Part shown: one piece after another, positions 25,960-61,161 of the stretch
Position numbering within the stretch: the first letter of the stretch is position 1
Layout: every line of letters begins with the position of its first letter
DNA from: Limisphaerales bacterium
GTDB taxonomy: Bacteria; Verrucomicrobiota; Verrucomicrobiia; Limisphaerales; SXTU01
NCBI GenBank assembly: GCA_009773355.1
Contig: WRPG01000021.1
Coordinates: 2,394 to 66,393 of the forward strand
Reading direction: 5' to 3'
DNA: 64,000 nt
Program-made: the position numbers and the translations under genes
Notes under the pieces: generated by a model
Told to the model about the DNA's origin: nothing
Database searches by the model: none
The model's input: the letters and a program-made list of their open reading frames with translations, nothing else

Positions 25960-27300
25960 TCAACCCCGCTTTGCCGCCTGCCACTCGTTCAAGCCCCGCT
26001 CTCCCGCCGCCGCGTCCAGGCCGAGCAGCTCCATCGCCTCGCCGATGAGGTAGAGCGAGCCTGCAACCAGCGCCCGCGGCTCGTCCGTCAAGGCCGCGAG
26101 CGCGTCCCGGGCCGACTCATGCGCCGTGACCCGCGCCGCCGGATTTGCCCGGCGGCAAAACTCCGCCAGCGCCGCCGGCTCCAGCGACCGGTTGCTGCCC
26201 ACCCGCACCGCCGCGATGCGCCGCGCCAGCGGGGCCAGTTCCCGGCACATGAGTTCGCAGTCCTTGTCCGCCAGCATCCCCACGAGGAGGGCGAAGGGCT
26301 GGCCGCCAAACTCGCCCTTCAGCGCCGTCACCAGTGCGCGAACGCCGTCGGAGTTGTGCGCGCCGTCGAGGAGAAACTCCCTCCCGCCCACCTTCGCCAC
26401 CTGCAAGCGCCCGGCCCACTGAACCGCTTCCAGCCCGCGCCAAAGCGCCGGCTCGCTCACCGGCAGCGTGGCCTGCAACGCCCGCACCACTGCCACCGCG
26501 AGCGCCGCGTTCCGGCGCTGGTGCGCCCCGCGCAACGGCAGCGCGACCGGAGCGCCGGTTTCCAAACCGGCTTTGCGTTCCTCCGCGACGAGCGTGAAGG
26601 GCGCTCCACACCGCTCCGCGGCGTCACGGATCACCGCCACCGCCTCCGGCGCGTCCGTCGCCGTGAGCACCGGCACGCGCGGCTTGATGATGCCCGCCTT
26701 CTCCGCCGCGATCTTCGCCAGCGTGTCCCCGAGCCACTGTTGATGGTCGAAGGCGATGTTCGTGATGACGCTCGCCAGCGGCGTCACGATGTTTGTCGCA
26801 TCCAGCCGCCCACCCAGCCCGGTCTCCCAAATCACCAGATCGCACTTCTGCTCCGCGAAATACTTCAGCGCCATGACCGTGATGAACTCGAAGAGTGTCG
26901 GTGGAGAGTTGGGGGAGTGATTAGTAATTAGTGATTGAGTGTTTGGTGGGGCGGCGGCGGCTGGCTGACTATTTACCAAACACTGATTACTAATTACTTC
27001 TTCCACCAACCGCGCCACGTCCGCCTCGCTGATCAACTCCCGATCCACCTGTATCCGCTCGCGGAACGAAACCAGATGCGGCGATGTGAACAGCCCCACG
27101 CGCAAACCCGCCGTCCGGTAAATGCTCTCCAGCATCGCGCAGGTGGAGCCTTTCCCATTTGTTCCTGCCAAATGGATGAACCGCAGCCGGTCCTGCGGAT
27201 TGCCCAGTGCCGCCGCCAGCCGCCGCGTCGTCTCCAGGCCGAACTGCGCGCCAAAGACGGCCAGCCCGTGCAGGTAATCCAGCGCTTCCGCGTAAGTCAT
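25960..27300 (-). CDS. folC: Bifunctional folylpolyglutamate synthase / dihydrofolate synthase
   Basis: P-loop HLAGTNGKGST, FTSPHLVSFRERI, WETGLGGRLDATNIV, NIAFDHQQWLG. ATG at 27300 (TTG at 27309 is an alternative). Confidence 0.88.
   Translation of the reverse strand: MTYAEALDYLHGLAVFGAQFGLETTRRLAAALGNPQDRLRFIHLAGTNGKGSTCAMLESIYRTAGLRVGLFTSPHLVSFRERIQVDRELISEADVARLVEEVISNQCLVNSQPAAAAPPNTQSLITNHSPNSPPTLFEFITVMALKYFAEQKCDLVIWETGLGGRLDATNIVTPLASVITNIAFDHQQWLGDTLAKIAAEKAGIIKPRVPVLTATDAPEAVAVIRDAAERCGAPFTLVAEERKAGLETGAPVALPLRGAHQRRNAALAVAVVRALQATLPVSEPALWRGLEAVQWAGRLQVAKVGGREFLLDGAHNSDGVRALVTALKGEFGGQPFALLVGMLADKDCELMCRELAPLARRIAAVRVGSNRSLEPAALAEFCRRANPAARVTAHESARDALAALTDEPRALVAGSLYLIGEAMELLGLDAAAGERGLNEWQAAKRG
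26917..26997. repeat. 81-nt AT-rich heptamer-based palindrome embedded in frame in folC
   Basis: gtgattagtaattagtgattgagtgtttggt ... accaaacactgattactaattac (arms differ at about 3 of 24 positions). Encodes ISNQCLVNSQPAAAAPPNTQSLITNHS between conserved FolC blocks. Confidence 0.8.
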
Positions 27301-29178: not shown

Positions 29179-32100
29179 ATGAGCCAACGTCTCTGCCTGT
29201 TCCTCGCCGCGCTTGCCACCGCGCTTCAGCCGCTGCGCGCGCAAGACGCCGCCAAGGAAGCCCAGTTCCTCACCAACACGCGCCAACTCATCTTCGAAGG
29301 CCGGCGCAGCGGCGAAAGCTACTTCTCGGCCGACGGCAAGTTCATGGTCTTTCAGAGCGAGCGCGAGGCGGACAATCCCTTCTACCAGATTTACCTGCTG
29401 AACCTGGAGACCGGCGACGTGAACCGCGTCTCACCCGGCACCGGCAAGACCACCTGCGCCTTCCTCCGCCCCGGCAGCGACGACGTGCTCTTCGCGAGCA
29501 CCCACACCGATCCTGAGGCGAAGACCAAGCAGAAGGCCGAGTTCGAAATCCGCGCTTCCGGCAAGTCCCGCCGCTACGCGTGGGACTACGACGACCGCAT
29601 GGAAATCTTCGTGTCCAAACGCGACGGCTCGAACATCCGCCGGCTCACCGACGCTCCCGGCTACGATGCCGAGGGCAGCTACTCGCCGGACGGCAAGCTC
29701 ATCGTCTTCTGCTCGCTGCGCCATGCCTACACCGGCACGCTCTCGCCCGAGGACAAGAAGAAGCTCGAAGTGGACACCGCCTACTTCGGCGACATCTACC
29801 TGATGAACGCCGACGGCTCGAACGTCCGCCGCCTCACCAGCACCCCCGGCTACGATGGCGGGCCGTTCTTCTCCCCCGACGGCCAGCGTGTCATCTGGCG
29901 GCGATTCAACGAGAAGGGCGACACGGCGGACGTCTACACGATGAAACTCGACGGCTCCGACGTGCGCCGCCTCACCGACTTCGGCGCGATGTCCTGGGCG
30001 CCCTACTTCCACCCGTCCGGCCAATACGTCATCTACACGGCGAACAAGCACGGCTTTGGCAACTTCGAGCTGTTCCTCGTGGACGCTCTCGGCGCGAAGG
30101 AACCCGTGCGCGTGACCCACACCGACGGCTTCGACGGCCTGCCGGTCTTCTCCCCCGACGGCAAGAAACTGGCGTGGACCAGCGGCCGCACGCCGGAGAA
30201 AAACTCGCAGGTCTTCATGGCGGACTGGAACCACACGGCGGCGCTGGCGGCACTGGCACAAGCGCCGAAGCGGAGCGGAACCACGCCGGAGCTGTCACTG
30301 CAGAGAATCAAGGCTCAGGGTTTGATCAGCGTTGGGGCCCTTACCGCAGAGAGTCTTCTTCAACTCCAAAGTTATAATCCGGAAATACGTGAAGCGGATT
30401 TGCGTGGCCATGTTGGGTTTCTCGCCAGCGAGTCACTCCAAGGTCGGCTCACGGGCTCGCTCGGCGCACTAAAAGCCGCTAACTACATAGCCGAAAACTT
30501 CAAGCTCTCCGGCCTTGCTCCACTCCCGTCCGTCAGCGACTTCTTCCAACCCTTCGAGTTCAGCTCCGGCGTCCGAGTGCTGACGAATCAGAATACCGCC
30601 TCGCTCCGTGCCAGCGCTAATGCCACGCCCGCCACGCTTGCACTCGACAAGGACTTCCGCCCCCTTGCCTTCACGGCGAACGGCACCGTGGAGGGGGAAG
30701 TCGTCTTCGCCGGCTACGGCCTCTCCGTGCCTGGCAAGCTCGGGGAAGGCTATGACTCTTACAACGGCCTCGACGTGTCGAACAAGGTCGTGCTCGTGCT
30801 GCGTTACGTGCCGGAGGAAGCCGACGCCAAGCGCCGCCAGGAGCTGAACCGCTACGCCGGCCTGCGCTACAAGGCCCTCATTGCGCGCAATCGCGGCGCG
30901 AAAGCCCTGCTCGTCGTCACCGGCCCCACGTCCCCGAACGCGGGCGAACTGGCGCGGCTGACCTTCGAGACCGGTGCGAGCCACAGCGGCATCGTCTGCG
31001 CCAGCATCGGCGGCGACGTGGCGGCGAAGATGTTCACTGCCGCGGGCAAGGATTTGAAGAAGACGCAGGCCGCGCTCGACAAGGAAGACCCGCACGCGGA
31101 AGGAGCTTTCGCGCTGAAGAACGTCGCCGTGAAGCTCACCGCCGCCGTCGAGCATGTGAAGAAGGCGGACCGTAACGTCCTCGCGCACATCCCGCCTGTC
31201 GGCACCAAGGAGTATGTCATCGTCGGCGCGCATTACGACCACCTCGGCCACGGCGAGACCGGCGGCTTCGCGCGCAAGGACGAGGAAGGCAAGGTCCACC
31301 CCGGCGCGGATGACAACGCCAGCGGCACCGCCGCGCTGCTCGAACTCGCTGGAGCGCTAGCCGAAGAATTTCGGAGCGCAGGTGTCCAACCTGCGTCCGG
31401 TTCCAGCGCGCCGAAAGCCGTGGCAAACGCAGGTTGGACACTTGCGCTCCGGCGCGGCGTGCTCTTCGCCGCCTGGTCTGGCGAGGAAGTCGGCTTGATC
31501 GGCTCCTCGCACTTCGCCGAGAAGCCGCCGCTCCCGCTCTCGAACGTCGTCGCCTACGTGAACTTCGACATGGTCGGCCGCCTGCGCGACAACAAGCTGA
31601 GTCTCCAGGGCATCGGCTCCTCCCCTACGTGGCGGAAGCTGATCGAGAAGCGCAACGTCGCCGCCGGCTTCAATCTGGCCTTGCAGGAAGACCCGTATCT
31701 GCCCACCGACACCACGCCCTTCTATCCGAAGAACGTGCCGGTCATCGCCTTCTTCACCGGCAGTCACGAGGAGTATCACCGGCCCGCCGACAAGCCCGAC
31801 ACGCTGAACTACGACGGCCTCGAACGCATCGCCAAGTTCGCCCGCGCCCTCATCACCGACCTCGCCTCGGGTGCCGAGCGCCCGGCCTACGCGAAGGTCG
31901 AGAAGAAGGACGGCGGCGGCGGCCGCGAGCAGCTCCGCGCCTACCTCGGCACCATCCCCGACTACGCTCAGGAAGTAGCCGGCGTGAAGCTGAGCGGCAC
32001 CCGCGGCGGCAGCCCCGCCGACAAGGCCGGGCTGAAGGGTGGCGACGTCATCGTCGAATTCGCCGGCCAGAAGATTGCCAACATCTACGACTACACCTAT

Positions 32101-39477: not shown

Positions 39478-39542
39478 GCAGTCGCAGGCTTCAGCCTGCG
39501 CTTCCGGAGCGGAGCGATTCGCAACCTGAAGGTTGCGACTAC
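39478..39542. repeat. Double-hairpin repeat element, copy 2 of 2
   Basis: gcagtcgcaggcttcagcctgcg ... cgcaacctgaaggttgcgactac. The TAG stop of the DUF1501 gene (39539-39541) lies inside the terminal gactac. Confidence 0.75.
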
Positions 39543-40978
39543 GCCAATATCCCCTTCACCACTTGGCACGGCTCGACGCCGGTGAGCTTCAAGTCCAAGC
39601 CCTGGAAGCGGACGGAGAGCCGCTCGTGGTCGAGGCCGAGCTGGTGGAGGATGGTCGCTTGCAGGTCGCGGACATGGACGGGGTTTTCGACGATGTGGAA
39701 GCCCAGTTCATCCGTCTGGCCGTAGGTGAGGCCGGGCTTCACGCCGCCGCCGGCCAGCCACATCGAGAAGGCCTGCGGATGGTGGTCGCGCCCGAGGCTG
39801 CGGCCCAGCGCGGCGTTGGATTCCACCATCGGGGTGCGGCCGAACTCGCCGCCCCAGATGACCAGGGTGTCGTCGAGCAGGCCGCGTTGCTTGAGGTCCA
39901 TCACGAGCGCGGCGCTGGCCTGGTCGGTGGTCTTGCAGTTGTTGCGGACGTTGCCCTCGACGTTCGAGTGCGCGTCCCAGCCTTCGTTGTAGATGTTGAT
40001 GAAGCGCACGCCGCGCTCGACCATCCGCCGCGCCAGCAGGCACGAGCGGGCGAAGGAGGGTTTGGCGGGGTCGCAGCCGTAGAGGTCGAGCGTGGCCTTG
40101 CTCTCGCCGCGCAAGTCCATCAAGTCCGGCGCGCTGGTCTGGAGGCGGAAGGCCATTTCGTAGGCAGCAATGCGCGTGGCGATTTCCGGGTCGCCGTCCA
40201 GCGCGAGGCGGCGCTGGTTCAGGCTGCCAATCAAGTCCAACGAGTCGCGCTGAAGCCGCGCGTCCGCGCCCGGCGGGCTGGAGACGTTGAGAATGGGGTC
40301 GCCTTGGTTGCGGAAGCGCACGCCGGTGTAGACGCCCGGCAACGCGCCGCTGCCCCAGCACGCCGAGCCGCCACTGATGCCGCTGCCCGTGCTCATCACG
40401 ACAAACGCCGGCAGGTCGCTCGTCTCCGCGCCGAGGCCGTAGAGCACCCACGAGCCCATGCTGGGCCGCCCCGGCTGGCCGAAGCCGGTGTTGAAGAAAA
40501 TCTGCGCGGGCGCGTGGTTGAACTGGTCCGTCCGCATGGACTTCACGATCGCGATGTCGTCCACAATCTTCGCGAGGTATGGCAGCGTTTCGCCCAGCTC
40601 CGCGCCGCACTGACCGTGTTTGGCGAATTTGAAGCGCGGCCCGAGCACCGCCGCGTCCGACCGGATGAACGCGTAGCGCTGCCCGCCGATGACCTCGGGC
40701 GGGATGGGCTTGCCTTCCAGCTCGGCGAGCTTGGGCTTGTAGTCGAACAGCTCCAACTGGCTCGGCGCGCCGGCCATGAACATGTGAATGACGCGCCTGG
40801 CCTTCGGCGCGAAGTGCGGCGGTTTGATGGGGAAGGGGTTCGCCGGCGCGGCACTGGCGCGGCGAGCGAAGGAGTCAGTCAGCAGGCCCGCGAGGGCGAC
40901 TTTGCCGAGGCCGACGCCGCAGTTGCGGAAGAAGTGGCGCCGCGTGACGGCGAGGCAGTGTTCTTGAAGAGGTGTCAT
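39539..40978 (-). CDS. DUF1501 domain protein (sulfatase-fold, Tat-signal type)
   Basis: N-terminal TRRHFFRNCGVGLGKVALAGLL. NEGWDAHSN and GGEFGRTP blocks typical of DUF1501. 3-nt gap after the upstream DUF1553 gene. Confidence 0.85.
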   Translation of the reverse strand: MTPLQEHCLAVTRRHFFRNCGVGLGKVALAGLLTDSFARRASAAPANPFPIKPPHFAPKARRVIHMFMAGAPSQLELFDYKPKLAELEGKPIPPEVIGGQRYAFIRSDAAVLGPRFKFAKHGQCGAELGETLPYLAKIVDDIAIVKSMRTDQFNHAPAQIFFNTGFGQPGRPSMGSWVLYGLGAETSDLPAFVVMSTGSGISGGSACWGSGALPGVYTGVRFRNQGDPILNVSSPPGADARLQRDSLDLIGSLNQRRLALDGDPEIATRIAAYEMAFRLQTSAPDLMDLRGESKATLDLYGCDPAKPSFARSCLLARRMVERGVRFINIYNEGWDAHSNVEGNVRNNCKTTDQASAALVMDLKQRGLLDDTLVIWGGEFGRTPMVESNAALGRSLGRDHHPQAFSMWLAGGGVKPGLTYGQTDELGFHIVENPVHVRDLQATILHQLGLDHERLSVRFQGLDLKLTGVEPCQVVKGILA

Positions 40979-40981
40979 GGT

Positions 40982-43900
40982 TCAGCCTTTTGCAATCATC
41001 TCGTCGAGGTTCAAAAGCGCGCGGGCGAGGGCGGTCCAGGCGGCGCGGTCGTTGGCGTCGCCATCGCCTTTGCCGGCGAAGTCGGCGGCCTTGAGTTCGC
41101 CGCTGGCGAAGCGGGCGCGTTGGGTCTCGAAGAACTTCACGAGTTGGGCGCGTTCGTTGGCAGTGGGCGGGCGGGTGAGGCAGCGGCGGAAGAGGGTTTC
41201 CACACGGGTCTCGATGCTGCCGGGCTGCGCGGCGAGCTGGCGGCCGAGGGCTTGGGCGGCTTCGAGGATGACGGTGTCATTGAGCAGGGTGAGCGCTTGG
41301 AGCGGCGTGTTCGAGACGTCGCGGCGGGCGACGCAGGCTTCGCCGCTGGGGCCGTCGAAGGTGTTGAACATCGCGTAGGGCGCGGAGCGTTTGGCGAAGG
41401 TGTAGAGGCCGCGGCGGTAGCGGTCTTCGCCCTTGCTCTCGTCCCATGACTTGCCGCCATACACGCCTTCCTGCGTGACGCTCGCGGGCTGCGGCGGGAA
41501 GACGCTCGGCCCGCCAATCTTCGGCGAAAGCAGCCCGCTCGCGCGCAGGACGGAATCGCGGATGAGTTCGGCGTCGAGGCGTGAGCGGGGGAAGCGGGAG
41601 AGCAGGCGGTTGTCGGGGTCGGTAGCCGCCGAGGTGAGGAGGCGGATTGGTGGCGTGGAAGGTTCAGTCCGCCTCCTGACCTCGGCGGCTACAGCGCTGC
41701 TCTGCTGGTAAGTGGCGCTGGTCACGATGAGCTTGTGCAACAGCTTCAGCGACCAGTCATGCTTCATGAACTCCACCGCCAGCCAGTCGAGCAGCTCCGG
41801 GTGCGTCGGCGCGTCGCCTTGCAGACCGAAGTCCTCGGTGGTGCGCACGAGGCCGCGCCCGAAGAACGCGGCCCACTGGCGGTTCACGGTGACGCGCGCA
41901 GTGAGCGGGTTCTCGGGCGAGACGAGCCATTGCGCGAAGCCGAGGCGGTTCTTTGGGGCGGCGGCTGGCAATGGGTTCAAGACGCCGAGCACGGTGGGCG
42001 CGACGGCTTCCTTCGGCGACAGAAACTCGCCGCGATGATGGCGGTGCGTGGGGCGCGGGTTCTCCAGCGGGCGCTCGCGCAAGACGAGGGTGGTCTGGTG
42101 GACGGGCGGTTTGCGCAAGCGCTCGATTTCAGCCCGCGCGGATTTCAGCTCGGGCGCGACGAGGAGGAATTGTTCGCGGAGCTTGGCGCGTTGGGCGGTG
42201 GTGAGTTGCGCCTCGGGCACGCGGAGCAACGCCTCGGCCTCCTCGGTCAACTCACTGGCGGCGGCCTGCGCTTCGGTCGTGGCGGAGAGGCGGAACCGGC
42301 CCAGCGAACAGGCGTAATGGCGGCCAAACTGAAGCAGCACTTCAAGGTCGCCAGTCGCTGCGAGCGGTTGGTCGAAGTGGAAAACCGCGACGTGTCGTTC
42401 GCCAAAGCGCTCGAAGACACCCCAACCCGTTTCGGGGTTGCCATCAATCGCCAGCGCTGCGGACGACCTGTCACCGCCGAGCCAGAGCTTCGCATAGGTC
42501 TGTGATGCCCGGGCGAGCTTCACGGGCTGGCTGGCTGCCTTCACGCGGAATTCACCGAGGAAGAAATCGCCTTTGGGACCTTCGTAATACGCCATGCCTG
42601 GCCCGTGCGCGGGCAGGCGGTCGTCGGGCAAGGCTTCGAGGCGAAGCGCGGCGGTTCCGGCTAGAACGCTCTTGAAGCGAAGTGTGTAAGTGTCGTTCTT
42701 GCTGATGTCTCCGCTCGCGAAGATGGAGCTGTCTGGCTGCACCGTGAGGAGCGGGAGGTTGGACTTGGCTTCGTCGGGGCGGAGTGTCGTCCACGTCACG
42801 ACGCGGGCGCGCTCGGCTTTGAGCCATGTGGCAAATCTCCTTTCCAGATGCTTGGCTCCCGGCACCGGCGGAGTGGAGTTTGTGTCCGCCGGAAACTGTC
42901 TCGGCAGCCCGGCCAGCAGGGTGGCGGCGCGCTCCAGATTCTTGCGGTGCAGTTCATCCAGCGCCGCGTCGGGCAGGTCCTGGTCCGGCTCGTCGGCGTT
43001 GTTGAGGAAGGCCATCACGCCGTAATACTCCGTCTGGGGAATGGGATCGAACTTGTGCGTGTGGCACTGCGCGCACATCAGTGTCAGGCCCAGCCAGGTT
43101 GTGCCGGTGGTGGCCACGCGGTCGGCCATCGCGTAGAAGCGGAACTCCAGCGGGTCAATGCCGCCTTCCTCATTCAGCATCGTGTTTCGGTGGAAGCCCG
43201 TCGCGACGAGCGGGTCCAAACCTTGAACCTTGAACCTTGAACCTTGAACTGCTGGCAAGAGGTCGCCGGCGAGCTGCTGGATGGTGAACTGGTCGAAGGG
43301 AAGGCCCTCGTTCAGCGCGCGGATGACCCAGTCGCGCCAAGGCCAAATGTTGCGCGGGCGGTCTTTCTCGTAGCCGTTGGTGTCGGCGTAGCGGGCGAGG
43401 TCGAGCCACTTGCGCGCCCAGCGTTCGCCGTAGTGCGGGGAGGCGAGCAGTTTGTCCACGAGCGCGGCGATGACCTTCAGCTCACTTTCCCGCCTTCTCA
43501 CCTGCCCACTTTCGCCGGCAGCCGGTGAGAAAGTGGGAGAGCGGGAAAGTGAGAGCTGGCGCACGAAGTCATCGGCTTCCTCCGGCGTCGGCGGCAGGCC
43601 GATGAGGTCGAGGTAAAGGCGGCGGACGAGCGTGTAGTCGTCGGCGGGTGGCGACGGCTTCAAGCCTTCCTTCTCCAGCCGCGCGAGGATGAAGTGGTCA
43701 ATGGCGTTCTGCGGCCAGCCGGCTTGCTTCACCTTCGGCAATGCAGCCTGCTTCGGTTTGATGAACGCCCAGTGCGGCTGGTAATCCGCTCCGGAGGCGA
43801 CCCAGCGGCGGAACGTGTCCATCTCGGCGGGCGTGAGGTGCTTCTTCGTCTCCGGCGGCGGCATGACCTTGTTGTGGTCGGTGCTGGTGATGCGGCGGAC

Positions 43901-44158
43901 GAGTTCGCTCTGGTCGGGCTTGCCGGGGACGAGGGCGCGCTTGCCGGACTTGGCCGGCTTGAGCGCGGCCTCGCGGAGGTCGAGGCGGAGGCCGGCCTTG
44001 CGCGCGTGTTCATCCGGCCCGTGGCAGGCGAAACACTGGCGAGAGAGAATGGGGCGGACATCGCGCTGAAAATCCGGCGCGGGCGCGGCGGCGAAGATTG
44101 GTAGCGCGCCCAGCAGGGCGGCGAAAGCGGTGGCAAATGGTTTCACGCGGCGAATCAC
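40982..44158 (-). CDS. PSCyt1-DUF1549-DUF1553 (PSD1) protein
   Basis: GTG start at 44158 gives MIRRVKPFATAFAALLGALPIFAAAPAP. Heme-like CFACHGPDEH. DUF1549 block LVRRLYLDLIGLPPTPEE. DUF1553 block CAQCHTHKFDPI. The longer ORF to 45046 overlaps the ApbE gene and is R/A/P-rich. Confidence 0.85.
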   Translation of the reverse strand: MIRRVKPFATAFAALLGALPIFAAAPAPDFQRDVRPILSRQCFACHGPDEHARKAGLRLDLREAALKPAKSGKRALVPGKPDQSELVRRITSTDHNKVMPPPETKKHLTPAEMDTFRRWVASGADYQPHWAFIKPKQAALPKVKQAGWPQNAIDHFILARLEKEGLKPSPPADDYTLVRRLYLDLIGLPPTPEEADDFVRQLSLSRSPTFSPAAGESGQVRRRESELKVIAALVDKLLASPHYGERWARKWLDLARYADTNGYEKDRPRNIWPWRDWVIRALNEGLPFDQFTIQQLAGDLLPAVQGSRFKVQGLDPLVATGFHRNTMLNEEGGIDPLEFRFYAMADRVATTGTTWLGLTLMCAQCHTHKFDPIPQTEYYGVMAFLNNADEPDQDLPDAALDELHRKNLERAATLLAGLPRQFPADTNSTPPVPGAKHLERRFATWLKAERARVVTWTTLRPDEAKSNLPLLTVQPDSSIFASGDISKNDTYTLRFKSVLAGTAALRLEALPDDRLPAHGPGMAYYEGPKGDFFLGEFRVKAASQPVKLARASQTYAKLWLGGDRSSAALAIDGNPETGWGVFERFGERHVAVFHFDQPLAATGDLEVLLQFGRHYACSLGRFRLSATTEAQAAASELTEEAEALLRVPEAQLTTAQRAKLREQFLLVAPELKSARAEIERLRKPPVHQTTLVLRERPLENPRPTHRHHRGEFLSPKEAVAPTVLGVLNPLPAAAPKNRLGFAQWLVSPENPLTARVTVNRQWAAFFGRGLVRTTEDFGLQGDAPTHPELLDWLAVEFMKHDWSLKLLHKLIVTSATYQQSSAVAAEVRRRTEPSTPPIRLLTSAATDPDNRLLSRFPRSRLDAELIRDSVLRASGLLSPKIGGPSVFPPQPASVTQEGVYGGKSWDESKGEDRYRRGLYTFAKRSAPYAMFNTFDGPSGEACVARRDVSNTPLQALTLLNDTVILEAAQALGRQLAAQPGSIETRVETLFRRCLTRPPTANERAQLVKFFETQRARFASGELKAADFAGKGDGDANDRAAWTALARALLNLDEMIAKG
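41622..41692. repeat. 25-bp-arm palindrome inside the DUF1553 coding region (same family as 29030-29106)
   Basis: gtagccgccgaggtgaggaggcgga - loop - tccgcctcctgacctcggcggctac (1 mismatch). Translated as AAEVRRRTEPSTPPIRLLTSAAT. Confidence 0.85.
43221..43248. repeat. Four tandem ccttgaa heptamers inside the DUF1549 region
   Basis: ccttgaa x4 read directly. Translated as VQGSRFKVQG just before the conserved ATGFHRN block. Confidence 0.85.
43478..43558. repeat. 81-nt imperfect palindrome inside the DUF1549/DUF1553 gene
   Basis: cagctcactttcccgccttctcacctgcccactttc ... gagaaagtgggagagcgggaaagtgagagctg. ctcactttcccgc pairs with gcgggaaagtgag. Translated as QLSLSRSPTFSPAAGESGQVRRRESEL. Confidence 0.7.
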
Positions 44159-45372: not shown

Positions 45373-45381
45373 GAACCGGAT

Positions 45382-45448
45382 GGAGCGCAGGTGTCCAACC
45401 TGCGCGAGGTAACCGGACACGAACGCGCAGGATGGACTCCTGCGCTCC
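45382..45448. repeat. Palindrome of the ggagcgcagg-gtcca-cctgcg family (intergenic copy)
   Basis: ggagcgcaggtgtccaacctgcgcg - loop - cgcgcaggatggactcctgcgctcc. The first 22 nt are identical to the left arm of the copy inside the M28 peptidase gene (31373). Confidence 0.85.
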
Positions 45449-45594
45449 GGCTCAGGGGCCGAACTCGCGGCCAGCGGCGGGCCGTTGGTTCTCCCCCCCG
45501 GTGGGGGCGAGGGGGAAGAGGCCGGGGGCCGCACAGGGCCGTTTTCCGGCTGGCCGCAAGGCGCGGTGCGGCTATGCTGCCGGGAGGAATTCAT

Positions 45595-58168: not shown

Positions 58169-58425
58169 GTGATGAACGGAGTTGAGACTGGCTTGCGGCG
58201 GAGGGCAATTCATTTTCACCGACGCGCAACGCCCGCTCACCGCCTTATGAATCTTGCTCCGCACTGTATCCATACGATCCGAGCGTCCGTCTCTGTTGGC
58301 CGATGCGTTCGTATGCCTTGCTGCTCAACGACCGGCCCAACAGGTCGGACTCCCCCAGCCGGCCGGCAAGACCTGGCCGGCTTCTGAATAGCCTTCCCGA
58401 GACCTCCGTCAGCCACCCATCCGTT

Positions 58426-61161
58426 ATGCGCCACGCGGCCCTGCTTCTGTTCGGTTCCCTCGTTCTCACCACCACCATCCAGGCGAAGGACGCCCCGCTC
58501 CGCACGCCGGAGCAGCGCTTCGCCAACCTCGCGAAGGCCGAGGAGCCGAGCTTCCGCCGCCACGTCGTGCCGCTCATCAGCCGCGCGGGCTGCAATGGCC
58601 GCGAGTGCCACGGCTCCTTTCAGGGGCGCGGCGGTTTCCAGCTTTCGCTCTTTGGCTACGACTTCGACAAGGACTTGAAGCAGATGACGGTCAACGCGGA
58701 CGGCGACGAGAAGGAGGTCCGCATCAACCGCGAGCAGCCGGAGAAGAGCCTCCTCCTCACCAAGGGCACCAACGAGGAGCCGCACAAGGGCAAGGAGCGC
58801 TACAAGAAAGGCTCTTGGGAATACAACTTGGTGTTGAAGTGGATTCAGGCCGGCGCGAAGGGGGACGTGGAGGCCACCGGTGACTTTGACCGGCTGGAGG
58901 TCAGCCCCCAGGAGATCGTCTTCAGGAAGGCCGGTGACAAGGTGCAGCTCCGCGTGCTGGCGCATTGGAAGGACGGCATCGTCGAGGACGTGACGCAGCT
59001 CACGCGCTTCCGCTCGAACGACGACTCCGTCTCCACCATCTCGCCGGCCGGCGTGGTCGAGGCGAAGGACAAGGGCGACACCCACATCGTTGCCTTCTAT
59101 GACAACGGCGTTCATCCCATCTCCGTGATGCTCCCGGTGTCGGACAAAGTCGGCCCCAAGTATCCCAAGCTCGCGACCGCCTCGAAAGTGGACGAGCACG
59201 TCGTCAGCAAGCTGGCCAAGCTCGGAGTCATCCCCAGCGAGGTTTGCACGGACACCGAGTTTCTGCGCCGCGTCTCGCTGGACCTGACCGGCACGCTGCC
59301 GACGCCGGACCAAATCACCTCCTTCCTGGGCGACAAGTCCGCCGGCAAGCGCGCGGCCAAGGTGGACGAGCTGCTCAAGACGCCGGCTTACGCCGCGTGG
59401 TGGGCCACGAAGTTGAGCGATTTCCTCGGCAACAACCCGCGCGTGCTGCGCGGCAACGGGCAGAACAACTACGGCGATAAGTTCAGCCGCCAGTGGTATG
59501 ACTGGATGAAGGAGCGCATCGCGAAGAACGAGCCTTACGACCAGATGATGGCGGGCATCATCCTCGCGACGGGGCGCACCAAGCCCGGCCAGACTTACGA
59601 GGAGTTTTCCCGCGAGATGTCCGGCTATTTCCGGGCGGAAAACCCGTTGAACTTCGTCGAGCGTCCGAACATGCCTTACTTCTGGCAGCGGCAGAACCTC
59701 CAGAAGGCGGAGGAGAAGGCGCTGGCGTTTTCACACAGCTTCCTCGGCGTCCGCATCGAGTGCGCGCAGTGTCACAAGCACCCGTTCGACCAGTGGACCC
59801 AGAATGACTTCAAGTCGTTCCAGGCGTTCTTCGAGGGCGTGAGCTACAACGGCAACCGGGGCGGCGGTGGAGGCAAGGGCGCTCCGGAGGTTCCGGGCGA
59901 GACCGTGACTTACGCCAGCCTCACGAAGGAAATCCGCGCCGCCGTCCCGCCCGACCCCAAGGGCGGCAACAACCAGAAGGCGCTCGGCGCGGAGTTCGAG
60001 AAGCGCGTGAAGGCGGGCGAGCCGGCCCCGTGGCAGGAGGTTTATGCGACGGTCCGTGACTCGCGGAAGCTCTCCGAGCGCGAGCTTGAGCAGATGAAGA
60101 AGCGCAACCCGAACTTCGACGGGCGCGTGCTCACCCCCCGCGTCCTCGGCGGCGAGGAAGTGATGCTCAAGGAGTATCCCGACCCGCGCGCGCCGTTGAT
60201 GGAGTGGCTGCGCAGCCCGAAGAATCCCTACTTCGCGAAAGCCTGGGTCAACCGCGTCTGGGCGACTTACTTCCACCGCGGCCTCGTCGAGCCGGCGGAC
60301 GACATGAACCTCGCCAACCCGCCGGTGAACGAGGGCTTGATGGACTATCTCGCCGACGGCTTTGTGAAGAGCGGCTACAACCTGGCCTGGCTGCACAAGG
60401 AGGTTCTGAACAGCGCCACCTACCAGCGCTCTTGGAAGCCGAACGACACGAACAAGAACGACGAGAAGAATTTCAGCCGCTTCGTCATCCGCCGGCTGCC
60501 GGCCGAGGTGGTGGTGGACGGCATCACGCAGGCCACGCTCGGCACTGAACGCATCGCCAGTTTCCGCGACGACATCGAAAGCCGCGCCATCGGCCCGAAC
60601 GCCAATGCCGGTCGCGGCGGCAAGGGCGCGTCGAACTACTCGCTGAACATCTTCGGCAAGCCCGTGCGCGAGACCAACTGCGACTGCGAGCGCACCACCG
60701 ACCCGACGCTCCTCCAGACGCTCTTCACGCGCAACGACCCGGAGTTGCTCAACGCGCTGGAGCAGGCCAAGGGCGGGGCCTTCATCGAGGAAATTCGCAA
60801 GGCGACCGGCGGTTCGTCAGGCCGAAACAAAGGCGACGTGGCCCAGATGGAGCAGCTCGTCCGCAAGCTCGAGTCCAAGCTCAAGGCGAATCCCGACCGC
60901 AAGGAGCTTGCCGCCGAACTGAAGCAGGCGAAGGAGAAGCTAGCGAAGCTGCAGCCGAGTCCTGCCACCGAGAAGAGCACCCCGGCCAAGGCTGACGATT
61001 ACATCACCCAGGTCTTCCTCCGCACCGTCAGCCGGCCGCCGACCGCCTCGGAAATCGAAAAGGCCCGCGCCGACCTCGCCGCCGCGAACTCTCCCGCCGA
61101 GGGCGTCCGCGAGCTGCTCTGGGCCATGCTGAACACCCGCGAGTTCATGGTGAACCACTAG
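58426..61161 (+). CDS. DUF1549 / Ig-like / DUF1553 protein (second copy of the family in the window)
   Basis: Signal peptide MRHAALLLFGSLVLTTTIQA. CNGRECHGS. DUF1549 block FLRRVSLDLTGTLPTPDQI. DUF1553 block CAQCHKHPFDQW. C-terminal LWAMLNTREFMVNH. Confidence 0.88.
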   Translation: MRHAALLLFGSLVLTTTIQAKDAPLRTPEQRFANLAKAEEPSFRRHVVPLISRAGCNGRECHGSFQGRGGFQLSLFGYDFDKDLKQMTVNADGDEKEVRINREQPEKSLLLTKGTNEEPHKGKERYKKGSWEYNLVLKWIQAGAKGDVEATGDFDRLEVSPQEIVFRKAGDKVQLRVLAHWKDGIVEDVTQLTRFRSNDDSVSTISPAGVVEAKDKGDTHIVAFYDNGVHPISVMLPVSDKVGPKYPKLATASKVDEHVVSKLAKLGVIPSEVCTDTEFLRRVSLDLTGTLPTPDQITSFLGDKSAGKRAAKVDELLKTPAYAAWWATKLSDFLGNNPRVLRGNGQNNYGDKFSRQWYDWMKERIAKNEPYDQMMAGIILATGRTKPGQTYEEFSREMSGYFRAENPLNFVERPNMPYFWQRQNLQKAEEKALAFSHSFLGVRIECAQCHKHPFDQWTQNDFKSFQAFFEGVSYNGNRGGGGGKGAPEVPGETVTYASLTKEIRAAVPPDPKGGNNQKALGAEFEKRVKAGEPAPWQEVYATVRDSRKLSERELEQMKKRNPNFDGRVLTPRVLGGEEVMLKEYPDPRAPLMEWLRSPKNPYFAKAWVNRVWATYFHRGLVEPADDMNLANPPVNEGLMDYLADGFVKSGYNLAWLHKEVLNSATYQRSWKPNDTNKNDEKNFSRFVIRRLPAEVVVDGITQATLGTERIASFRDDIESRAIGPNANAGRGGKGASNYSLNIFGKPVRETNCDCERTTDPTLLQTLFTRNDPELLNALEQAKGGAFIEEIRKATGGSSGRNKGDVAQMEQLVRKLESKLKANPDRKELAAELKQAKEKLAKLQPSPATEKSTPAKADDYITQVFLRTVSRPPTASEIEKARADLAAANSPAEGVRELLWAMLNTREFMVNH

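Follow-up and report, generated by a model that had tools for sequence, protein, structure and literature searches.

How does one protein-coding gene come to hold three unrelated repeats, a palindrome, an array of seven-base units and a second, less perfect, palindrome, and to be open from start to stop through all of them? The gene that raises the question (the host gene below) lies in a stretch of 64,000 nt from a Limisphaerales bacterium of the Verrucomicrobiota (the window: positions 2,394 to 66,393 of contig WRPG01000021.1, GenBank assembly GCA_009773355.1), and its product has by Pfam the domains PSCyt1 (residues 41-102), PSCyt2/DUF1549 (152-388) and PSD1/DUF1553 (736-1008). An original prediction, made from the letters alone, saw three separate in-frame insertions there and offered as reasons either strong selection filtering insertions by frame or a mechanism that tolerates them, such as surface loops in a large periplasmic protein. 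The answer reached here is that the in-frame repeats are real and belong to three families of small repeats spread through the genome, that a selection filter is directly visible in the in-frame elements that survive, and that the host gene has probably been colonised by all three families of dispersed repeats, which would be read through and kept by purifying selection in linkers.

Three in-frame repeats and their families

Arm detection and Tandem Repeats Finder (TRF) find the three repeats, here called pal1, the heptamer array and pal2 (Table 1), in the one DUF1549/DUF1553 gene as predicted, with the frame open through each and the translations given earlier correct. The arms of pal1 are 28 nt long, 93% complementary and separated by a 15-nt loop, and on the mRNA strand it folds at -52.3 kcal/mol (z = -8.0), which none of 200 shuffles equalled. 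By TRF the heptamer array has period 7, 4.4 copies and 100% matches; it is translated VQGSRFKVQG (residues 304-313; with the next residue VQGSRFKVQGL, 304-314) and its RNA is by itself unstructured (z = -0.07). The 29-nt arms of pal2, 79% complementary, are built of four 8-nt GAAAGTGG-like units and fold at -49 kcal/mol on the mRNA strand (z = -4.7), the wider segment being translated QLSLSRSPTFSPAAGESGQVRRRESEL (residues 201-227). Predicted peptides across the insert junctions of the host protein include ...YQQSSAVAAEVR and ...LLPAVQGSR. In the whole 64-kb window no Rfam family reaches its gathering score.

None of the three repeats is private to the host gene, as seen both by short-query BLAST, which finds many dispersed copies of each in the genome, and by a census of the 6.16 Mb assembly (162 contigs, 66% GC). 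Its proteins have their closest database matches among those labelled Limisphaerales or Verrucomicrobia. Hairpins with at least 18 paired bases number 1007, against 10 in a triplet-shuffled genome, and sort into 153 arm families. Clean arrays of period 7 number 362, where periods 6 and 8 give 152 and 33, and at a looser cut there are 658 heptamer arrays made of 162 canonical units, nearly all in 3-5 copies; several families of tandem seven-base units are thus dispersed through the genome, as with the cyanobacterial heptanucleotide repeats considered below. Chance as the origin of the repeats is rejected by the genome shuffle and by the RNA-fold shuffles.

The largest hairpin family (family 0), to which pal1 belongs, has 112 hairpins, whose spacers vary from copy to copy and measure 15-50 nt. 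As pal1 reads GTAGCCGCC...GGCGGCTAC, it has the terminal GTAG of the GTAG-tagged repetitive extragenic palindromes (REPs), and each half consists of GTAG, CCGCC, a GAGGTGAGGA-type loop and GGCGG; GTAG and a small stem-loop in each arm make pal1 an inverted dimer of such a REP. For a unit of GTAG-tagged REPs a stem of 5-13 bp is characteristic, and the stem here is of 5 bp. There are 255 family-0 half-sites that fit GTAG-N5-GACGTGAGGA-N5 when at most one substitution in GACGTGAGGA is tolerated, and in 245 of them the 5-nt stem blocks pair at four or more of the five positions. Fully paired half-sites number 117, against 42 with shuffled partners, and the stems form three covarying subfamilies, CAGCC/GGCTC, GAGAC/GTCTC and the CCGCC/GGCGG of pal1. 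The AACCTTG/GTTCAAR unit of the heptamer array has 48 pattern matches in the genome, as solitary arrays and as the arms of 13 family-18 hairpins. For pal2 the resemblance is to family 20, with 11 hairpins, period-8 scores of 0.65-0.86 and six of the 11 in frame in genes.

Belonging to three different families, the elements are separate, and the corresponding segments are absent or different in homologues. The outcome named in advance as fatal to the prediction, that the segments are simply conserved protein in homologues whose DNA is free of repeats, is not what is seen. The alignment with a paralogue in the window, proposed as a check, has gaps where pal2 and pal1 stand (sites A and F), and the PSCyt2 and PSD1 matches are each about 30 residues longer in the host protein than in the Pfam profile.

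Two of the repeat classes are also joined to one another. Heptamer arrays of many different units stand in the spacer of 32 of 93 family-0 dimers (for example C75:6432-6524 and C68:45072-45177, the C handles being those of the assembly's contigs) and are absent from all 238 spacers of families 1-4 and 8, and so family-0 REP dimers and heptamer arrays are physically linked as composite elements. The family of pal1 serves as a vehicle for heptamer cassettes that vary in their unit.

In-frame elements and the filter on them

An element was called in frame when both of its 180-nt flanks had the same codon-position GC phase and strand, with the phase kept across the element and no stop within. On the first count 148 hairpins and 144 solitary heptamer arrays are in frame; with tracing of open reading frames (ORFs) there are about 341 in-frame elements in 271 ORFs, 31 of these ORFs having two elements and 17 three or more. 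Random placement of 341 elements by gene length gives a mean of 1.7 genes with at least three (the maximum in 2000 trials being 8), so that multi-hit genes are about ten times too frequent. The host gene belongs to that class (the scan credits it with two elements, pal2 being just below the 80% arm cut-off) and it is not unique in it, 17 other ORFs reaching three. PSCyt2/PSD1 paralogues account for seven of the 17, and among the remainder are Mfd, two UvrA paralogues, AddB and an HrpB-type helicase, each with three in-frame elements, and further a class-III aminotransferase, a U32 peptidase, a MauG-like peroxidase and a TPR protein. With the cytoplasmic Mfd, UvrA, AddB and HrpB among the hosts, periplasmic location is not the determining factor.

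What do the survivors have in common? Family-0 hairpins are in frame inside genes in 45 of 112 cases (40%) and solitary heptamer arrays in about a third. Intragenic family-0 REPs are read in two or three open frames, and among those in frame the left-arm frame that holds TAG and TGA is never the reading frame. In the 45 copies the left arm is translated V(A/G)(A/D)DVRRLTS... or GSSRREEAPS... and the right arm ...QSLLTSAAT or ...EPPHVG(C/G)Y. For heptamer units that are open on both strands, orientation can be compared among the coding copies alone: AATCGGC stands 24:1 in favour of NRQSAIG over ADCRLPI, AACACGC 7:0 for NTQHATR over ACCVLRV, AACGCGG 6:0 for NAERGTR over PRSAFRV and AAACTCC 4:0 for KLQTPNS over GVWSLEF, the favoured orientation of in-frame arrays being almost exclusively that of a hydrophilic peptide. 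Arrays whose unit has a stop on each of the two strands are 4.5% of the total, where 12-13% is expected. It is because the hydrophilic, stop-free orientation is almost exclusive in genes that the filter can be seen directly, and the array orientation, together with the open-frame reading of family 0, supports the strong selection that had been postulated.

Table 1. Coordinates of the host gene, its repeats and other features (positions are those of the window, those of the assembly where a contig handle is given, or residues in host protein numbering)
Feature	Position	Strand	Remarks
Host gene	40982-44158	minus	1058 codons; GTG start at 44158, stop 40982-40984
pal1	41622-41692		71-nt hairpin, site F; arms 41622-41649 and 41665-41692; translated VAAEVRRRTEPSTPPIRLLTSAAT, residues 823-846
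Heptamer array	43219-43249		Site B; (AACCTTG)x4.4 on the plus strand, (CAAGGTT)n on the coding strand
pal2	43481-43553		73-nt imperfect hairpin, site A; arms 43481-43509 and 43525-43553; translated LSLSRSPTFSPAAGESGQVRRRESE, residues 202-226
PSCyt2 + PSD1 paralogue	58303-61158	plus	Without the host gene's inserts
DUF1501 gene	39539-40978	minus	Downstream of the host gene; context
Intragenic in-frame hairpins	26914-27000, 31372-31451		Two further hairpins of the window
Family-2 copy	45379-45451		In a long open frame upstream of an ApbE domain
Three-element repair genes	C159:52131-55616, C159:55731-58700, C139:20466-24533, C132:34845-38531		Two UvrA, Mfd, AddB
RAYT-like Y1 gene	C27:209745-210533		Family-1 hairpins on both sides
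Second Y1 domain	about C27:165000-165748		C-terminal end of the 599-codon open frame C27:163952-165748
Third Y1 gene	C114:8352-8813		Flanked by another palindrome type
Paralogue position	residues 125-155		17 in-frame elements
Paralogue position	residues 198-233		Site A; 8 in-frame elements
Paralogue position	residues 300-316		Site B; 7 in-frame elements
Paralogue position	residues 728-738		4 in-frame elements
Paralogue position	residues 819-853		Site F; 16 in-frame elements

Of the two further intragenic hairpins of the window listed in Table 1, one has heptamer (AGTGATT) arms and one is of family 2 (GGAGCGCAGGTGTCCAACCTGCG). The family-2 copy near the ApbE domain may lie 5' of the true start.

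Sites occupied throughout the clade

Orthologues were compared as a 29-protein alignment (66-86% identity) and as the DNA of 18 orthologous loci from species-representative genomes, with a clade of 13 members, the window gene included, set beside three outgroup loci (L015, L044 and L035). Length variation among the orthologues is restricted to a few sites. Among the 13 clade members no empty site A, B or F was found, each member carrying some repeat at each, often another one, so that the orthologues differ in which repeat is present. The three sites are long-occupied hotspots, and judged from the sequences the events at them look like replacements; insertion into a naive gene, as originally pictured, is not borne out. 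Segments at A, B and F are short in the outgroup orthologues (at B in two of the three outgroups) and in the paralogue (gaps at A and F).

Site B is the clearest case. In outgroups L015 and L044 it is 48 nt without a repeat and in L035 72 nt with a (TCAAAAT)x4 array; in the 13 clade members it is 60-72 nt of three or four seven-base units, with a unit that differs: GTTCAAG in the window gene and, in decayed form, in L004 and L013; AACTCNA in L002, L009, L012 and L034; TCTCAAA in L003 and L007; CTCTCGA in L001 and L005; and CCAGACN in L006, L008 and L010. At site A most orthologues have 72 nt with (CAATCGG)x4, translated QIGNRQSAIANL, the window gene and L003 have the 129-nt version with pal2, and L035 has (GAAAGCGG)x4. 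Site F, 69 nt in the outgroups, holds in the clade, varying by member, an array of (CCCCAGA)x4 or (CTCTCGA)x4, or a hairpin with CAGTGAA arms, one with AAGGGTT arms or a TCGAGAG hairpin, and among the clade loci compared a complete REP dimer in the window gene only. In L010 a left REP half (GTAGGAGCCGACGTGAGGAGGCT) is followed at site F by (CAATCGG)x4 and no right REP half; this composite could be a replacement intermediate or a decayed composite element.

At two more sites, C and E, some orthologues have an element and the window gene has none. At site C six loci (L006, L008, L009, L010, L012 and L034) have a 72-nt in-frame insert, translated ...SPSPPSGERAGVRGQ..., which is a short hairpin (CCCTCTCCCCCATCGGGGGAGAGGG) resembling family 13 of the window genome, a family present there only outside genes or at gene ends. 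In L005 the arrays (TCTGGGG)n at site E and (CCCCAGA)n at site F flank a conserved 20-residue segment (WSLKQLHRLIVTSATYQQSS) and pair as a split hairpin of 195 nt (-98.8 kcal/mol). The same arrangement is present in L004, L022 and L036, and L001 has the F arm only and L006 the E arm only. From such split and single arms it appears that the two arms of one heptamer hairpin can occupy different protein loops.

At sites B and F the kind of unit does not go with the tree. In a tree built on 923 gap-free columns, sisters differ in their elements in the pairs L002/L004, L006/L034 and L003/L007, and identical element types recur in both subclades. Nor does similarity of the flanks (85-93% identical, hence of low resolution) track element type, except that the nearest site-A flank to that of the window gene is that of L003, the other pal2 carrier. 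Changes within arrays are concerted, three units of L007 reading CATCGGC and two of L013 CAAACGG, and some in-place evolution therefore also occurs. A search for the GTTCAAR family, present in 14 of 16 genomes (the control pattern proved itself to be a repeat family), could therefore not separate replacement from a genomic pool from change in place. The organism labels of the contigs L001, L002, L003, L006, L009, L013 and L034, which come from metagenome-assembled genomes, look unreliable, with doubtful titles such as 'Klebsiella sp.', 'Akkermansia muciniphila' and 'Proteobacteria bacterium'.

Within its own genome the host gene is one of about 65 PSCyt2/PSD1 paralogues, and 36 of these loci hold at least one in-frame element. 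Together they have 63 of the 341 in-frame elements, about five times their share of coding DNA, and 52 of the 63 are at the five homologous positions of Table 1. At the first of these (residues 125-155) 12 paralogues scattered over the paralogue tree have a near-identical (CAATCGG)x4.5, translated IGNRQSAIGN, which ends exactly at the conserved NPID motif within well-diverged flanks. The genome has 53 CAATCGG arrays (for example C159:20212, C52:20701 and the C28:129671 region), 34 of which share one span. Within 7 nt on their 5' side TTC is present in 27 of the 53, against a background of 8%, and on the 3' side in two. It is possible that this TTC is a target or part of the element. Of the 53 arrays 23 lie in PSCyt2/PSD1 genes, and such an association of the CAATCGG arrays cannot be explained by tolerance alone.

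Are the sites loops, as had been supposed? An AlphaFold2 model of the host protein from a 71-sequence alignment has a mean predicted local distance difference test (pLDDT) score of 85.4 and a predicted template modelling (pTM) score of 0.85, a model from the 29 orthologues being unusable (pLDDT 52). Site F (823-846) is modelled as coil, its block pLDDT being 56 and 51 and the values at 825-831 below 50, site A (201-227) as the ends of helices 192-206 and 216-238 joined by a turn, with block pLDDT dipping to 73 at 211-220, and site B (304-314) as a short helix, 303-311, with coil (pLDDT 83-88). No solved relative was found by sequence and no PDB fold match at E <=0.001. As far as the model goes, then, 'surface loop' is well supported for site F only, a low-confidence loop in an otherwise good model, and that part of the prediction stands, whereas sites A and B are modelled as helical.

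Weighing the explanations

Could the repeats still be moving? There are three genes with a Y1-transposase domain (PF01797) in the genome. One resembles the REP-associated tyrosine transposases (RAYTs) and has GTAG-tagged family-1 hairpins (GTAGCTCGACATTCCAATGTCGAG) on both sides in the manner of a REPtron. Among the 1007 hairpins 76 have a twin at another locus that is at least 90% identical over its full length, spacer included (one such pair being two family-0 copies of 94% identity inside unrelated genes), and since full-length twins exist and none is identical, whole elements have been copied, though not very recently. In comparison with miniature inverted-repeat transposable elements, pal1 has inverted arms and no target-site duplication is visible at its flanks (GCAGCGCT ... 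CGACCCCG); the outer flanks of 320 half-sites have a weak C-rich bias.

On the reading we consider probable, that of dispersed repeats colonising the gene and being kept in linkers by purifying selection, pal1 would as a GTAG-tagged REP have been moved by RAYT-type Y1 transposases. The AACCTTG array belongs with hundreds of other short arrays that have 3-5 heptamer units each, and pal2 is a hairpin whose arms are 8-base arrays. The copies retained would be those that keep the frame, bring no stop, encode a hydrophilic peptide and lie in a linker that tolerates extra residues. As a large multi-domain protein may offer several such linkers, such proteins would come to gather several elements. 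Arrays may arrive, or be replaced, by insertion next to or into resident repeats, or else by slippage or conversion in place. Several observations weigh against so simple a picture. Random insertion followed by a filter leaves unexplained why CAATCGG stands at one position in 12 deeply diverged paralogues, why 23 of its 53 arrays are in the PSCyt2/PSD1 family and why no clade site A, B or F is empty; sites A and B are modelled (pLDDT 73-92) as helices and not as loose loops; around the three Y1 genes no clear REPtron or dedicated RAYT was found for family 0, whose nearest hairpin is 443 nt downstream of one of them with family-2 hairpins closer; and no identical hairpin pair was found, the best full-length identity being 96.6%.

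A rival reading has the inserts old and evolving where they are, each site having received one ancient repeat in the ancestor of the clade that was later altered by slippage, unequal exchange and conversion. The even size of the site-B arrays, the prevalence at site A of the 72-nt (CAATCGG)x4 and the concerted unit changes in L007 and L013 all suit this, as does the sharing by the window gene and L003 of a pal2 with permuted 8-nt units and mutually nearest flanks. We nevertheless think it unlikely, for unit types at B and F disagree with the gene tree and recur in both subclades, the units in question also form dispersed families across the genome, site F alternates between unrelated classes (REP dimer, solitary array, heptamer-armed hairpins) and a slip of seven bases breaks the frame, so that single steps would pass through null alleles. 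A contrary thought is that exchange is directed, the hotspots being landing pads of an insertion or recombination mechanism that diversifies the loops of paralogues. It draws on the concentration of 52 of the 63 paralogue elements at five positions, on the nearly uniform arrays before NPID in 12 diverged paralogues scattered over the tree, on the one-sided TTC (27 of 53 against two of 53), on the arrays in 32 of 93 family-0 spacers and none of 238 in five other families, and on the REP half plus array of L010. Any enzyme and target site for it are only hypothetical, few tolerant linkers and a long time could produce equal clustering, peptide tolerance alone explains the orientation bias and TTC may be simply part of the element, for all of which we regard directed exchange as doubtful. 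With like reserve, candidate landing pads may be suggested in the spacer of a GTAG-REP hairpin, entered while single-stranded, and in the position 3' of a TTC-type target; and, just as tentatively, the repeats could then amount to a built-in system for remodelling loops in PSCyt2/PSD1 and other multi-domain proteins, and so to something beyond junk DNA that is tolerated.

Seven is not a multiple of three, and gain or loss of one unit shifts the frame. Might the arrays then be slippage-prone frameshift switches of a 65-gene family? Heptanucleotide repeats are described as driving phase variation in Haemophilus, and this family is large and about 5-fold enriched for in-frame elements. The arrays are however short (3-5 units) and tightly sized, in no PSCyt2/PSD1 locus was one found out of frame, the truncated orthologues end at contig ends and not at frameshifts, and the same arrays stand in essential repair genes. 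Phase variation therefore seems to us very improbable.

Kindred repeats and what they mean

The nearest relatives in kind are the GTAG-tagged REPs that were defined, together with those tagged CGTC, by Di Nocera, De Gregorio and Rocco (2013, BMC Genomics 14:522; PMC3733652) as short stem-loops found mostly as inverted dimers with variable spacers and linked to RAYT transposases. As described there, another member of the Verrucomicrobia, Opitutus terrae, has the most intragenic GTAG REPs, with dimers that encode 20-30 residues, two inserts in some ORFs and DNA-repair genes as frequent hosts, both uvrA genes with double inserts included; the authors propose neutrality, the intragenic REPs being in flexible linkers or loops (PMC3733652). 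The likeness to pal1, with its GTAG...CTAC ends and covarying internal 5-bp stem, is close, and both UvrA genes here hold repeats too, three elements each. Unlike in O. terrae, whose peptides in Additional file 3 of that paper lack LTSAAT or DVRR motifs and are of other sequence families, 40% of family-0 hairpins are here in frame and a third of the spacers have heptamer arrays, and the passages of PMC3733652 searched make no mention of heptamer or octamer arrays or of turnover at fixed sites. In-frame GTAG REPs in linkers, several to an ORF, having been described in 2013, the finding is largely of a known kind; what seems less described is the turnover of heptamer cassettes at fixed sites.

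For mobilisation the likely model, by analogy, is that of REPINs and RAYTs, in which inverted REP doublets occur in hundreds of copies and a Y1 transposase gene, itself present once, lies between REPs of its own (Bertels and Rainey 2011, PMC3116915), as the RAYT-like gene here does between family-1 hairpins. REPINs are almost entirely extragenic (in strain SBW25 the most abundant 16-mers occur 1,067 times and overlap a gene in only 14 cases; PMC3116915), unlike the family of pal1 with its 40% inside genes. Rickettsia palindromic elements (RPEs) are in-frame repeats in unrelated genes, at positions compatible with the fold and with a peptide conserved within the family (PMC10969869). The elements here are likened to them by behaviour, being palindromic, in frame in unrelated genes and, in the 45 family-0 copies, of family-specific peptide, and differ in that RPEs are about 100-150 bp long and restricted to Rickettsia, as against 30-100 nt in a free-living GC-rich Verrucomicrobium whose elements fall into more than 150 arm families and are in part made of tandem units of 7 or 8 bases. 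The short tandemly repeated repetitive (STRR) heptanucleotide sequences of heterocystous cyanobacteria are several dispersed families of tandem seven-base units, of unknown function. They serve for fingerprinting (PMC5088731), belong to another phylum and differ from the arrays here, which keep tightly to a short size of 3-5 units and in many cases form the arms of hairpins or lie within REP dimers. Literature searches found, in the library searched, no description of heptanucleotide repeats of Verrucomicrobia or of the LLTSAAT peptide, nor of in-frame heptamer or octamer arrays, of their nesting in GTAG-REP dimers or of exchange at fixed linkers.

Taken as a whole, the original prediction was right about separate in-frame elements, selection and the tolerance of linkers; it understated how ordinary such a gene is in this genome, overstated the periplasmic loop and missed the long occupation of the hotspots. 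A free-living soil or freshwater Verrucomicrobium would seem to read several hundred small repeats as protein, in essential repair enzymes among others, and which of the repeats survive has depended on frame, on stop codons and on the kind of peptide encoded. For annotation the consequence is that strange peptides of low complexity in these lineages, LLTSAAT, IGNRQSAIGN and VQGSRFKVQG, are to be seen as repeat-derived linkers and not as conserved motifs. Should exchange at the fixed sites after all be directed, it would be a new bacterial way of varying protein loops, and would give a handle on how heptamer repeats spread, unexplained since their description in cyanobacteria.

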